63,570 nt of DNA from Myxococcales bacterium. Lineage in GTDB: Bacteria; Myxococcota_A; Polyangia; Polyangiales; Houyiibacteriaceae. The DNA is taken from assembly GCA_012744445.1 (NCBI GenBank), contig JAAYBZ010000165.1:1-63570 (forward strand). The letters are read 5' to 3'. The notes below the pieces were generated by a model. That model was not told the origin of the DNA. It searched no databases and was given only the letters and a program-made list of their open reading frames with translations. Below, piece by piece: positions 35,020 through 40,770 of the stretch. Positions within the stretch are counted from its first letter, which is position 1; every line of letters starts with the position of its first letter. A program made the translations under genes and the position numbers.

Positions 35020-35775
35020 ATGGCCGAAGAGAGCTCAGTTCTGTTCAACCTCAAAGAGCTGATGAACCTCGAGGAGGATCGCATCCGCCAGGAGGAGGAA
35101 GAGCGTCGCCGGCAAGAAGAAGAGGAGCGTCGCCGCATCGAAGAAGAGGCGCGCCGCCGCCGCGAGGAAGAAGAAGCCCGCCGCCGCGCCGAAGAAGAGG
35201 CGCGCCGCCTCGAGGAGAAGCGTCGCCTCGACGAGGAGGCCGCCCGCCTCGCCGCCATCGAGGCCGAGGCCGCCCGCGCCAAGGCCGAGGCCGAGGCCCG
35301 CGCCCGCGCCGAGGAGCAGCAGAAGCTCCTCGAGCACGAGCGCAAGATGGCCGAGCTCGAGGCCCAGAAGCGCAAGGGTCTCCCGCCCGCGGCCATCGCG
35401 GCCGTCGTGCTCCTCTTCATCGCCATCGGCGCCGGCGGATATTTCGGCGTCGTGGCGCCCATGCTCGAGCAGCGCGCCCGTGAGGCCCAGCTCGCCGCCG
35501 AGGAGGCCGCGCGCCTCGCCGAGCAGCGCGCCGAGGCCGAGCGCCTCCGCCTCGAGGCCGAGCGCCGCGCCCAGCAGACCGAAGAGGAGAAGCGCCGTCT
35601 CGAGCAGGAGAAGCTCGAGGCCGAGCGCAAGGCGGCGGCCGCCAAGACCTCGTCCTCCTCGTCGTCTTCGTCCATGACCTCGAGCTCGTCGACGATGAAG
35701 ACCACCTCGTCGTCCTCGATGAGCGGCTCCAGCATCGGCAGCTCCAAGGACCCGCTCGCGGGTCTGCCCTTCTGA
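35020..35775 (+). CDS. bitopic membrane protein with Glu/Arg/Ala-rich coiled coils on both sides of one TM helix and a poly-Ser tail
   Basis: The ATG is preceded by ACGGAGCGAAG. The protein has (E/R/A)n heptad-like low complexity, a central helix AAIAAVVLLFIAIGAGGYFGVVA, and a C-terminal S-rich tract. No family was recognised; it is TolA-domain-II-like in composition only. Confidence 0.55.
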   Translation: MAEESSVLFNLKELMNLEEDRIRQEEEERRRQEEEERRRIEEEARRRREEEEARRRAEEEARRLEEKRRLDEEAARLAAIEAEAARAKAEAEARARAEEQQKLLEHERKMAELEAQKRKGLPPAAIAAVVLLFIAIGAGGYFGVVAPMLEQRAREAQLAAEEAARLAEQRAEAERLRLEAERRAQQTEEEKRRLEQEKLEAERKAAAAKTSSSSSSSSMTSSSSTMKTTSSSSMSGSSIGSSKDPLAGLPF

Positions 35776-37254: not shown

Positions 37255-38010
37255 ATGATCCGCCTCGTGGACCGGAACGCTGCGATCCTGATCATCGGCA
37301 ACGAGATCCTCACGGGGAAGATCCAAGACGAGAACACGCCCTTCCTCGCGCGTGAGCTCTTCTCGCTCGGCATCCGGCTCGAGCGCGTGATCGTCTGCCC
37401 CGACGACATCGACACGATCGCGCGCGATCTCCGCGAGCTACGCACGAGCCACGACGTGGTCTTCACCAGCGGCGGCGTGGGCCCCACGCACGACGACCTC
37501 ACGCTCGACGCCGTGGCCAAGAGCTTCGACACGCCCATCGCCCGCTCCGGCGAGATGGAGGCGCTCATCCGCGCGCACTTCGGCGAGCGCACCACCGAGG
37601 ACCACCTCCGCATGGCGCTCATGCCGGTCGGCGCGCGCCTCGTCCACGGCTTCGACGTCGCCTGGCCCACCGTGGCCATCGAGAACGTCTACGTCCTCCC
37701 CGGCGTGCCCGAGATCCTCCGCCGCAAGTTCTCCGTGATCCGCAAGGAGCTCGATCGCGGCGAGACCTTCTTCAGCGAGGCCGTCTTCACGCTCGCCGAC
37801 GAAGGCGAGATCGCGGGCATCCTCCACGAGCTCACGCGCGCCTTCCCCGCCCTCGTGATCGGCAGCTACCCCAAGATGCCGGGCGCGGCCGACCACCGCG
37901 TGAAGGTCACCTTCGACGGCAAGGACGAGGCCGACGTGAGCGCGGCGGCGGAGGCCTTCGTCACCAAGCTCCCGCGCGAGAAATTCCTCCGACGCGAGCG
38001 CGTGATCTGA
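37255..38010 (+). CDS. molybdopterin-binding (MoCF_biosynth / CinA N-terminal-like) domain protein
   Basis: AAILIIGNEILTGKIQDENTPFLARELFSLGI...VFTSGGVGPTHDDLT is the MoaB/Mog/CinA-N fold signature. An ~80-aa C-terminal extension follows. Confidence 0.8.
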   Translation: MIRLVDRNAAILIIGNEILTGKIQDENTPFLARELFSLGIRLERVIVCPDDIDTIARDLRELRTSHDVVFTSGGVGPTHDDLTLDAVAKSFDTPIARSGEMEALIRAHFGERTTEDHLRMALMPVGARLVHGFDVAWPTVAIENVYVLPGVPEILRRKFSVIRKELDRGETFFSEAVFTLADEGEIAGILHELTRAFPALVIGSYPKMPGAADHRVKVTFDGKDEADVSAAAEAFVTKLPREKFLRRERVI

Positions 38011-38502
38011 TCAGCCGACGAGCTCGCAGATCACCACGGGGATCGTGCGCTCCGTCCAGCGCGCGTACTTGTCGAAGTCGGCGTAGTGCGCGACGAGCTT
38101 GGGCCAGTAGTAGGCGCGCTCCTCGGGGTCGGCCGGGCGCGCGTTGTAGCTGCGCTCTTCCTTGCCGATCTGGATGGAGACGAGCGGGTTGGCGAGGATG
38201 TTCTTGTACCAGAGGGGGTCCTTGGGGAGCCCGCCCTGCGAGGCCACGAGGATGACCTTGTCGCCGTCCTGGATGAAGACGAGCGGCGTCGTGCGCGGCT
38301 GCCCCGACTTCCGGCCGATCGTGGTGAGCAGGCAGATGGGGATCCCCTTGGGGAAGGCCGAGCCCACGCGCCACTTGCCGCCGAGGCGCCCGCCGGTCGC
38401 GCGGTAGAGGGCGACGTTCGCCCGAGACATCACCTTCATCATCTTGGGCACCCAGGGGGCGTCGAGACCCTCGGGCTTCTCTTCGGGGAGGTTCATCCGC
38501 AT
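38011..38502 (-). CDS. deazaflavin(F420)-dependent nitroreductase (DDN) family protein
   Basis: MKVMSRANVALYRATGGRLGG...LLTTIGRKSGQPRTTPLVFIQDGDKVILVASQGG...DPLWYKNILANP...YYWPKLVAHYADF matches the PF04075-type pattern. Confidence 0.8.
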   Translation of the reverse strand: MRMNLPEEKPEGLDAPWVPKMMKVMSRANVALYRATGGRLGGKWRVGSAFPKGIPICLLTTIGRKSGQPRTTPLVFIQDGDKVILVASQGGLPKDPLWYKNILANPLVSIQIGKEERSYNARPADPEERAYYWPKLVAHYADFDKYARWTERTIPVVICELVG

Positions 38503-38511
38503 GCGGGTTGA

Positions 38512-39084
38512 TTACTTGCTCCCGCGGCGTCCGCCAAGGTCCCGCGTCGAAAAGCGGAGGGCTCGCCCGAGCCCGAGCGAGAGGATCCCCATCGCCGTGA
38601 GCGCGGCGACGAGCACGTAGGCGCCGGCGCCCGGCGTCAGCGTGGAGCCTCCCCCCGCCGCGAGCTCCACGCCGCGACGGAGCGCCACGAGCACCGACGC
38701 GAGTCCGATCACCGTGGCGAAGAAGAGCGCCACCCGTACGCGGCCGAGGACCTTGGCGTCGTGGATCGAGAAGAGCGCGCCGAGGATCACCACGGGCGCG
38801 AGGAAGGCCACCCAGAGGCTCTCCCCGCCCGCGAGCGCCACGCCGAGCGCGCTCACCGGCGGGCGCAGCCCCTCCTCGTCCACGAAGAAGGGCAGGAAGA
38901 ACGCGACGCACGCCACGATCGCCGCGAGCATGAGACCCACCCGCCCTCGCGCGGGCGGGGGCGGAGGCGCTCCTTCGTCCCCCTCGAGCGATTCGGGCGG
39001 GACGAGCTCGAGGTCGTGATCCGGGCAGCGCGTCTCGCCCTCGAACGATTCACGGCAGAACGGGCAGATGCGCGTCTTCGCCAT
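38512..39084 (-). CDS. zinc-ribbon (CxxC...CxxH) polytopic membrane protein
   Basis: The ATG at 39084 gives [27 protein letters not shown], followed by about 4 hydrophobic helices. It overlaps the upstream gene's end by 35 nt. No family was recognised. Confidence 0.55.
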
Positions 39085-40126
39085 CGACCGATCGTACACC
39101 GCCCGCGGCCCACGCAAAGGGCTCGCCGCCGACCGCGTGCGTCGACGCGAAGACCGCGCCGCTCACGTCCTCGAGCTCCACGCGATAGCGGCCCGGCGGG
39201 AGCCGATCTCCGAGGTCGAGCCGCACCGTCGCGCGCGCGCCGAGCGGAACGACGAGGCCGTGGGGGCCAGGCCTCACCTTCACGAGCCAGCGGTTCTCGA
39301 TGGCCTCCGCGGGGATCGAGGCCAGCGCGTCGGCGTCCATCGCGAGCACGGGCGCTCCGCGCTCGTCGAGCACGCGGAGGGCGACGAGGAAGGCGCCGTA
39401 GGTCTCGGGCCCGACGGGACGCTCGAGGGTGAGGCGCAGCGATCCATCCCATTGCTCGAGCCCGAGCACGTCCACGCGCGGCTTCACCGAGTCGTTGTGC
39501 AGCGTGCCGAAGACCCCGCCGTGGAAGATCTGGTTGGTGGCGAGCGTGACCGCGAAGATCCCCGCGGCCAGGGCCGCCGTGAGGAGGAGCGACGGCGTCG
39601 GCGTCGGATCGGCCGCGAGCCGCGCGAGACGCGGGCGCATCCACGCGGGGCGCGCACGCGCGATCCAGGCGTCCACGGAGAGCGGGCCCGCCCCGCCGAG
39701 CAGGAGCGCCGCGCCGCCGGCCATGCCCATCGCGCCGATCTGCCATTCGTCGAGGCATGTCGGCCCGAGCCAGCCGGCGCCGAAGAGGATGCCGGCGGAG
39801 AGCATCAGCGTCCCGAGCGCGGCGAGCCGCGTCCCGAGGCCGAGCATCAGCGCGAGCCCCACCAGGGCCTCGATGAGGGTGAAGGTCCAGAGGAAGGCGT
39901 GGAGGAGCTCGGGGCGATCGAGGAGGAAGGCGATGAGATCGCCGACCCCGAAGATGGCCCCTGGCATGAACTGGTTGAACTTCTCGCCCACGTAGCCCGC
40001 CGCCTCGGGGACGAGCTTCTGCGGCTCGAGGATCACCCGGCGGTGGAAGGCCGAGAAGAACATCCAGCCCACCACCACGCGGAGCACGAGCATGGCGGGC
40101 GCCGGCGCCTTGGACACCGCGCTCAC
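39050..40126 (-). CDS. DoxX/DoxD-family membrane protein with C-terminal DoxA-like periplasmic domain (DoxDA-type, putative thiosulfate:quinone oxidoreductase-like)
   Basis: The GTG at 40126 overlaps the regulator's stop (GTGA 40123-40126). The N-terminal 4-helix DoxX/DoxD pattern is [13 protein letters not shown]...[20 protein letters not shown]. An extra TM helix and a ~170-aa beta-rich C-terminal domain follow. The DoxA assignment is tentative. Confidence 0.7.
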
Positions 40127-40770
40127 GCCGACACCTCGAGGGGACGCCCCTCGCCGCGCCACTCGGGCACGCCGAAGAGGAGGCGCTCGGCGCGGAGCCC
40201 CTTCCCTCGGAGGAGGGCCGTGCCGCGACGCGCCTTCGGGCAGTACTTCCCGCGGCAATAGACGAGGATGCGCTTCTTCTCGGGGAGCGCCGTCCAGCCC
40301 TCGGCGAGCCCGTCGAAGGGCAGGGAGACCGCGCCCGGGAGGTGCCCCGCGCGGTACTCGGGCTCGGGGCGGAGATCGGCGAGGACCACCGCCTTCCGCG
40401 CGTGGAGGGCCTCGAGCGCGTCGGGGCCGACCTCCGACGCCGCCTCGTCACGCTCCTGCGCGAGCAGCTGGAGCGGGGGCGAGATCGCCTCGGCCGCCTC
40501 TCGGAGCGCGAGGAAGAGGCGCAGCGGCGCCTCGCCGTTCGGGTGCTGCACGGCGTATTTCCCGCTCCGCTCGGCCCGGACGAGGCCCGCCTCTCGGAGC
40601 GCCTTCATGTGCGCGGCCGTATTCGCCACGCCCGCCCCGAGCTCGGCCGCGAGCTCCTCGATGCTCCGCGGCTTCTGGAAGAGGAGGTGCAGCGCCCGCG
40701 CCCGCACCGGGCTCGCGAGCGCCCCGGCCACCCGGGCGAGCTCGCCGTAGACGACTTCGCGTTCGGTCAT
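40123..40770 (-). CDS. ArsR/SmtB-family transcriptional regulator fused to a rhodanese domain
   Basis: w[51 protein letters not shown]. The C-terminal rhodanese has [23 protein letters not shown] and the active-site loop YCRGKYC. ATG 40770 is preferred; TTG 40782 lies inside the operator palindrome. Confidence 0.85.

Follow-up and report, generated by a model that had tools for sequence, protein, structure and literature searches.

The genes for an ArsR-rhodanese fusion regulator and a DoxD-DoxA fusion membrane protein (DoxDA) in a Myxococcales bacterium probably form a two-gene, self-regulating sulfur unit from which two unrelated downstream genes are driven as well, a reading to which we assign a probability of roughly 0.6. 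The genes lie within a 63,570-nt stretch of DNA, hereafter the window (GCA_012744445.1, contig JAAYBZ010000165.1, positions 1 to 63,570, forward strand), from a genome of 3.77 Mb with approximately 70% G+C and 94% completeness. In the window, positions 38011-40770 of the minus strand hold four closely packed open reading frames (ORFs), encoding the regulator, DoxDA, a Zn-ribbon membrane protein and a reductase of the DDN family. An earlier note on this DNA had presented all four as one sulfur/quinone redox-stress module. That interpretation is partly supported, and the interest of the locus lies in the two-gene unit and in the regulator family rather than in the four-gene set. The coordinates, overlaps and gap described for the four genes were confirmed when the sequence was re-read, and the starts of the regulator and DoxDA are identical in public gene calls (100%-identical clusters P0121 and P0001). 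The features that carry the argument are as follows.

40806-40801, minus strand: -35-like hexamer TTGTCA, abutting the operator
40802-40772, minus strand: operator, two overlapping AT-rich inverted repeats, conserved in seven loci
40770-40123, minus strand: regulator, 215 amino acids (aa)
40257-40240, minus strand: rhodanese active-site loop C172-R-G-K-Y-C177 of the regulator, the proposed sensing site
40126-39050, minus strand: DoxDA, 358 aa, with a GTGA stop/start overlap with the regulator
39757-39755, minus strand: codon of Cys124, the sole cysteine of DoxDA, in a motif invariant across 14 DoxDA fusions from five phyla
39084-38512, minus strand: Zn-ribbon membrane protein, 190 aa, with a 35-nt overlap with DoxDA
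38502-38011, minus strand: DDN protein, 163 aa, last of the four, after a 9-nt gap

The regulator, its operator and DoxDA

All domain calls made earlier for the four proteins, including DoxA and PF04075, hold in Pfam. The regulator matches HTH_5 (36.5 bits, cut-off 22), HTH_20 (28.6 bits, cut-off 27) and Rhodanese (48.7 bits, cut-off 22.2), with an ArsR winged helix at residues 1-96, a linker helix at 98-105 and a rhodanese domain at approximately 110-215. Its AlphaFold2 model (pLDDT 94.8, pTM 0.88) consists of two domains, with the winged helix in the order a1-a4/b1-b2/a5 and the loop C172-C177 placed in canonical rhodanese geometry between a strand (167-171) and a helix (178-189). As in sulfurtransferase-type rhodaneses, the catalytic cysteine is the first residue of a six-residue loop that links a beta-strand to a helix. 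An assignment of this domain to the Cdc25/Acr2-type arsenate reductases was rejected, the loop having six residues and no CX5R motif (seven residues).

C172 and C177, both within YCRGKYC, are the sole cysteines in the regulator. Across 20 homologues, down to 37% identity, we observe that Y171, C172, R173, G174 and C177 are invariant, as is the loop pattern YCRG[KP][YF]C, and that the DNA-binding half has no conserved cysteine. The ArsR/SmtB metal site is absent, with no Cys in residues 1-171 and the sole conserved His located in the recognition helix. No full-length ArsR-rhodanese structure was found in the PDB, where no chain spans both domains; the best matches are BH2092 and the 1-100 fragment of Mycobacterium bovis Mb0332. 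BH2092 of Bacillus halodurans (PDB 3nhv/3o3w), a stand-alone rhodanese from structural genomics that is listed without a function, has the same CxGxxC loop (YCWGPAC), and the sensor loop could be modelled on its structure.

The palindrome that the earlier note placed upstream of the regulator is real and, with up to three mismatches allowed, unique in the 3.77-Mb genome; at approximately 70% G+C, this lies far beyond chance. It corresponds to the first operator repeat, TCAATCATT-N6-AATGATTGA at 40802-40779, which is overlapped by a second, family-like repeat, CAATCATTCAA-N8-TTGAATGGTTG at 40801-40772, and the repeats end 1 to 8 nt ahead of the regulator ATG. With the sequences right-aligned at their start codons, T(T/G)GACA is common to seven loci and is followed by ..TCAAAT-N4-6-(A/T)TTGA.. 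and, after 0 to 8 nt, ATG or GTG. The position of the -35-like hexamer is occupied by TTGACA or TGGACA in the six related loci. We infer promoter function from this conservation, since a consensus promoter scan gave no full sigma-70 site. With no space for a Shine-Dalgarno leader, the mRNA is probably leaderless; the promoter is probably covered by the operator.

DoxDA matches DoxD (PF04173, 144.1 bits) and DoxA (PF07680, 119.3 bits), both far over cut-off, and has no DoxX (PF07681) match at E ≤ 0.01, which leaves the analogy once drawn with the mycobacterial DoxX/SseA system weak. Its five transmembrane helices (9-33, 72-95, 99-116, 125-144 and 180-202) are followed by a beta-sandwich DoxA domain (219-332; AlphaFold2 pLDDT 78). 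The final 23 residues are disordered, overlap the Zn-ribbon gene and are not conserved outside one sister lineage, described below. Cys124 is a candidate catalytic or substrate-binding residue, and the order of the helices together with the Arg-rich loop 145-178 leads to a predicted periplasmic position beside the DoxA beta-sandwich. Profile searches found no DoxDA relatives in the PDB; the matches of a fold search, SoxYZ among them, were only generic immunoglobulin-like ones (TM ≤ 0.23) and are not counted as evidence. The doxDA gene of Acidithiobacillus is treated as encoding a thiosulfate:quinol oxidoreductase, with a rhodanese gene in the same cluster (PMC2621215, PMC6335251).

Gene order in related genomes

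Related loci were compared by tblastn with defined proteins, tblastx of the window being swamped by high-G+C noise. We observe DoxDA in 2 of the 41 genomes of the order, this one included, and in the other (G034) the regulator is again directly upstream of it. In Labilithrix luteola (L001), Chondromyces crocatus (L002) and a 101-kb JGI contig (L003), the end of the ArsR-rhodanese gene is the start of the DoxD+DoxA gene, and the pair is also found in the sister-lineage contigs (L120-L122), with 8 further regulator/DoxDA matches coming from contigs of identical length. Conservation of the pair includes its translational coupling. In an ENA contig (L124), doxD and doxA are two separate genes that come after the regulator. 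Neither the Zn-ribbon gene nor DDN accompanies the pair in Labilithrix, Chondromyces, L003, G034 or L124. Among 400 genomes of the phylum, DoxDA was found in none beyond this one, which indicates rarity only and not proven absence, because five candidates per genome were scored and Labilithrix and Chondromyces do carry DoxDA. The DoxDA genes of Mycolicibacillus and of a Haloferula-like (verrucomicrobial-type) contig are without an ArsR-rhodanese regulator nearby.

In the metagenomic contig L124 (3034-7593), the regulator and the split doxD/doxA are surrounded by a DUF302 gene, two metallo-beta-lactamase (MBL)-fold genes and an MBL-rhodanese fusion. Around this type of regulator, the arrangement would represent a more complete set of genes for the route from sulfide to tetrathionate.

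The four-gene order, whose conservation the earlier note had put forward as a check, is kept in one sister lineage only (three JGI contigs, approximately 76% DNA identity to the window); it is missing from the same-genus genome G001 and from all other carriers of the pair. The sister-lineage order runs M23 peptidase, tRNA-Val, an extra FAA-hydrolase gene, regulator, DoxDA, Zn-ribbon gene and DDN, with a 38-nt overlap between the Zn-ribbon gene and DoxDA and a 9-nt gap before DDN. Protein identities to the window are 64-70% for the regulator, 72-75% for DoxDA and 63% for the Zn-ribbon protein. The sister DDN (L120:2078-2500, compared with 38011-38502 of the window) stands apart at 90%, and this difference suggests either a much stronger constraint on DDN or its more recent exchange.

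The Zn-ribbon protein combines a CPFC-x9-CPxH ribbon with four membrane helices and belongs to no Pfam or NCBIfam family. Its gene is present in 36 of the 41 genomes of the order, normally without DoxDA, and residues C7, P8, F9, C10, C20, P21 and H23 are invariant. The N terminus as a whole reads CPFC-x-E-x-FE-x5-CP-x-H-x-L-x-LV without variation in this uncharacterised order-wide family (L009-L018). In G001 the gene stands at the same backbone position with no regulator, DoxDA or DDN there; it converges on a cinA-like gene, has rlmB and pyrF after it, and has guaB and a lipoprotein gene upstream. Its neighbours in other genomes include PilZ-like, GNAT-like and response-regulator/GGDEF-like ORFs, these names being our reading of the sequences. 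The Zn-ribbon protein is probably a co-transcribed passenger, and we read the regulator/DoxDA pair as having landed in front of a resident Zn-ribbon gene.

The DDN protein scores well over cut-off with PF04075 (147.7 bits, cut-off 22) and TIGR00026 (123.4 bits, cut-off 46.35) and has M. tuberculosis Ddn (3r5l; 137 bits, residues 46-160) as its best PDB match, from which it is predicted to be a Ddn-like F420H2-dependent (quinone/nitro) reductase. The earlier note had called F420-type enzymes atypical outside Actinobacteria and archaea. A search for F420 genes shows that this one is not odd here, with cofD (289.5 bits, cut-off 257.45), cofH (458.8, cut-off 374.1), cofG (419.5, cut-off 213.35), cofE (249.7, cut-off 180.65) and cofC (123.7, cut-off 105) all over their NCBIfam cut-offs and fno split over two contig ends, beside cofE-cofD-cofC.

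C163:29293-31902, C193:32666-32887 and C26:45197-47709: F420 gene set (fno pieces; cofE, cofD and cofC on C163; cofG and cofH on C26)

With cofC/D/E/G/H and fno encoded, F420 use is expected. The cofD gene occurs in 11 of the 41 genomes, and about a quarter of the genomes in this lineage are predicted to make F420. DDN matches were found in 10 genomes (nine relatives and this one), all of which have cofD, and in 0 of the 30 cofD-negative genomes; the homologues in the relatives are located elsewhere. This co-occurrence makes DDN a normal F420 client, whose distribution tracks F420 and not DoxDA. It looks like a true F420 enzyme whose host makes the cofactor, and like a passenger on the transcript in this lineage. 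On gene order, then, only the regulator and DoxDA would constitute the conserved functional unit. The earlier note did not recognise the composition of the operon as a described system; for the ArsR-rhodanese/DoxDA pairing, which is conserved, no description was found.

The regulator belongs to a large family: among clusters at 50% identity, 1,061 have a representative that matches at E ≤ 1e-30, and most of those listed are full-length proteins of 215 to 240 aa; a scan of genome contigs gave at least 393 genome loci that match it. Literature searches found no paper on an ArsR-rhodanese fusion. Neighbourhoods were examined for 80 loci of more distant relatives (33-43% identity to the regulator; none with DoxDA among the matches listed), and a sulfur-type neighbour was present within 2.5 kb at 62 of them. 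These neighbours are DsrE (36), rhodanese-MBL (30), VTT-rhodanese (11), SQR-like (10+6) and cysteine desulfurase (9). The other recurrent neighbours are MFS transporters (36) and fatty-acid-hydroxylase-like genes (15), and no metal transporter or ars gene is among the recurrent neighbour clusters of these loci. Regulator homologues also stand beside sulfur-type genes at the single loci L025-L027, L123 and L124; among them, close homologues without DoxDA (53-56% identity; L025:4645-5760 and L123:2222-3322) are coupled to, and precede, a DsbD_TM-thioredoxin fusion. The view that the regulator looks autoregulated and sulfur-linked is borne out by the two invariant cysteines and by this range of neighbours, from DsrE, rhodanese-MBL and SQR-like genes to cysteine desulfurase, DsbD-thioredoxin and split DoxD/DoxA.

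The NCBIfam pair TsoR/TsoB, in which an ArsR-type regulator goes with a fusion of rhodanese and DsbD, appears to join these components in another arrangement; the matches to it are weak (approximately 20 bits).

Upstream, the operon is bounded by two further features.

41033-40961, minus strand: tRNA-Val(GAC) (ARAGORN), upstream boundary of the operon, context only
40942-40920, minus strand: terminator-like hairpin and T-run after the tRNA (pattern scan: 9-pair stem, 7 G-C pairs, tail TTTCGTTTCT)

The terminator-like hairpin may shield the operon from transcription arriving from upstream, and the sister-lineage operon has retained the tRNA/terminator stretch ahead of it (L121; 83% in blastn over 111 nt). 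At the other end, the DDN gene and a convergent cinA-like gene (37255-38010, plus strand) meet stop to stop with zero intergenic bases and no terminator (38008-38013), and transcription of each should run antisense into the other. Elsewhere in the window, 35020-35775 (plus strand) encodes a protein of 251 aa in which a long repeat rich in Glu and Arg (EEEERRRQEEEERRR...) is accompanied by a single hydrophobic segment and a tail rich in Ser and Thr; the protein is also found in a same-genus relative.

Proposed mechanism and alternatives

We propose that the ArsR-rhodanese protein, probably as a dimer, binds the AT-rich inverted repeat between the -35-like hexamer and its own start codon, as the conservation of this site suggests, and in doing so represses the probably leaderless transcript. 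Sulfane sulfur from thiosulfate or from persulfides/polysulfides would load the catalytic Cys172, and Cys177, five residues further on, would resolve the persulfide into an intramolecular sulfur-bridged form. The linker helix would relay the change to the winged helix, upon which the DNA would be released. Derepression would yield DoxDA, which by analogy with its family would comprise a five-helix quinone-binding membrane domain and a periplasmic beta-sandwich, and which may oxidise thiosulfate to tetrathionate with passage of the electrons into the quinone pool. The Zn-ribbon protein and the Ddn-like reductase would ride on the same transcript in this lineage, outside the conserved system. 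The likely role is the opportunistic use or disposal of external thiosulfate.

Several points weigh against this proposal. DoxDA falls short of the NCBIfam equivalogs for thiosulfate:quinone oxidoreductase (TQO), with 109.4 bits against a cut-off of 300 for NF041179 (DoxD) and 21.2 against 300 for NF041178 (DoxA), and scores so far below cut-off mean that functional identity with the archaeal enzyme is not established. The sensor is cytoplasmic and the DoxA domain is predicted to be periplasmic, so that thiosulfate must enter the cell or be sensed indirectly. SQR-like, DsrE and SoxA/TsdA genes were not found in the 94%-complete genome by tblastn with chosen probe proteins; with no sulfide-oxidation gene matched by these probes, the source of thiosulfate may be external. 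DoxDA fusions of Bacteroides respond to oxygen exposure, and a thiol/disulfide context has been discussed for them (PMC6158253). Given the order and junctions kept in the sister lineage and the 90% identity of DDN, some functional coupling of the last two genes is conceivable. DNA binding, inducer and enzyme activity are all predictions from sequence.

The most serious alternative, which we regard as unlikely though worth keeping in view, is an oxidant- or thiol-stress switch, in which Cys172 and Cys177 would form a disulfide upon exposure to peroxide, diamide or quinones and DoxDA would act in thiol/disulfide or quinone homeostasis, a role that has been discussed for DoxDA of Bacteroides fragilis and for mycobacterial DoxX. 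A CX4C pair is able to form a disulfide, close regulator homologues precede DsbD-thioredoxin fusions, this genome shows no obvious sulfide-oxidation pathway to the tblastn probes, and doxDA of Bacteroides fragilis is co-expressed with trxP and goes up on oxygen exposure in a bmoR mutant (PMC6158253). However, both cysteines belong to the catalytic loop of a rhodanese, which works by transferring sulfane sulfur, sulfur-handling genes (DsrE, rhodanese-MBL, SQR-like) accompany 62 of the 80 distant family loci, L124 ties the regulator to DoxD/DoxA and to persulfide-dioxygenase-like genes, and DoxDA has no DoxX (PF07681) match. It is very improbable that the regulator senses metals or metalloids in the classical ArsR/SmtB manner, its two cysteines binding As(III) or a thiophilic metal: the family name and weak NCBIfam metalloregulator matches point that way (HTH_metalloreg 48.7 bits, cut-off 55; CmtR 35 bits), but these scores are all below cut-off, the winged helix lacks a Cys or His metal site and the recurrent neighbour clusters include no metal transporter or ars gene.

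That all four genes form one sulfur/quinone redox-stress module, with DoxDA and the Ddn-like reductase both working on the quinone pool and the Zn-ribbon protein as a subunit or assembly factor, is the reading of the earlier note, and we consider it doubtful at best. The genes are tightly packed with overlaps, and the sister contigs preserve an identical order and junctions at approximately 76% DNA identity. M. tuberculosis Ddn is an F420H2-dependent menaquinone reductase, so that both enzymes plausibly touch quinones. Outside this narrow clade, however, the genes separate: five carriers of the pair lack the Zn-ribbon gene and DDN, the Zn-ribbon gene is spread order-wide without DoxDA and among other neighbours (36 of 41 genomes compared with 2 of 41) and stands alone in G001, and the DDN homologues of relatives sit elsewhere and follow cofD. 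Moreover, the end of DoxDA that is encoded within the overlap with the Zn-ribbon gene is disordered, and its conservation stops at the sister lineage.

The regulator family and known systems

We give about even odds to the broader proposal that ArsR-rhodanese fusions represent a large unrecognised class of one-component sulfane-sulfur/thiosulfate sensors, in which a catalytically competent rhodanese domain with a CX4C loop serves as the receptor, distributed over many phyla with lineage-specific sulfur outputs and probably including Rv0324 of M. tuberculosis. The output would then be DoxDA in this lineage; in others it would be DsrE, persulfide dioxygenase, SQR or DsbD-thioredoxin. In the PDB, nothing matches the winged-helix half nearly as well as the Mb0332 fragment (PDB 2kko/3gw2, residues 1-100; 95 bits). 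This fragment also shares 62% identity with the winged helix that fused ArsR-rhodanese proteins carry in other actinobacteria, which makes Mb0332 very likely a member of the family. We take Mb0332 of M. bovis to be the orthologue of Rv0324. The latter is known from network studies, and its deletion leads to bedaquiline hypersensitivity in M. tuberculosis (PMC9480834); our literature searches found neither a signal for Rv0324 nor a link to rhodanese or sulfide. If the assumed orthology is right, the family reaches mycobacteria and includes a member that is tied to drug tolerance without a known signal.

The sensing of thiosulfate and sulfane sulfur is only partly understood, and the known ArsR sensors use two cysteines of the DNA-binding core. 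If our proposal is true, the sensing chemistry has moved to a fused sulfurtransferase domain, a distinct solution in which an enzyme domain acts as the receptor. The regulator would also be the first defined DoxDA regulator outside acidophiles and would provide a handle on the DoxDA fusions of ordinary heterotrophs. Since it involves a single operator, two cysteines and a protein that is small and soluble, the sensor idea can be tested directly.

Compared with BigR, SqrR, SoxR/sHdrR (Hyphomicrobium denitrificans) and HlyU, the regulator shares the ArsR winged helix, a palindromic operator at its own promoter, and genomic ties to rhodaneses, persulfide dioxygenases, SQR and DsrE/TusA-type genes (PMC10451225, PMC12423496, PMC10054925), and the two-cysteine sulfur-bridge switch of these proteins is what we propose for it. 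However, BigR, SqrR, SoxR and HlyU are proteins of approximately 100 to 120 aa with both sensing cysteines within the winged-helix core, the trait that defines them, whereas the regulator described here has a core without cysteine and carries both invariant cysteines in the loop of a fused C-terminal rhodanese; it scores 16.7 bits with the NCBIfam BigR equivalog (cut-off 155). We therefore place it, on its domain architecture, as an apparent variant of the persulfide-sensing ArsR repressors with an appended enzymatic sensor. With Mb0332, likeness is seen in the winged-helix half, and since only a DNA-binding fragment of that protein has been solved, the comparison applies to that fragment alone.

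DoxDA resembles the TQO of Acidianus ambivalens (DoxD/DoxA) in having DoxD and DoxA domains in the same order, and DoxDA of Acidithiobacillus in being fused; A. ferrooxidans also has a rhodanese gene close by (PMC2621215). The doxDA gene of A. caldus is grouped with tetH and controlled by a two-component system, RsrS/RsrR (PMC5093147, PMC6335251); here, in contrast, the putative controller is a one-component ArsR-rhodanese and tetH is not adjacent, in a neutral-pH-type heterotrophic myxobacterium. As for the mycobacterial DoxX-SseA-SodA complex, DoxDA has no PF07681 match and the rhodanese is fused to the regulator rather than being a free SseA-type enzyme. Finally, the DDN protein is like M. 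tuberculosis Ddn (Rv3547) in family, in subgroup by sequence and in having an F420 host, and differs from it in belonging to a myxobacterium and in being encoded by the last gene of a putatively sulfur-regulated transcript.

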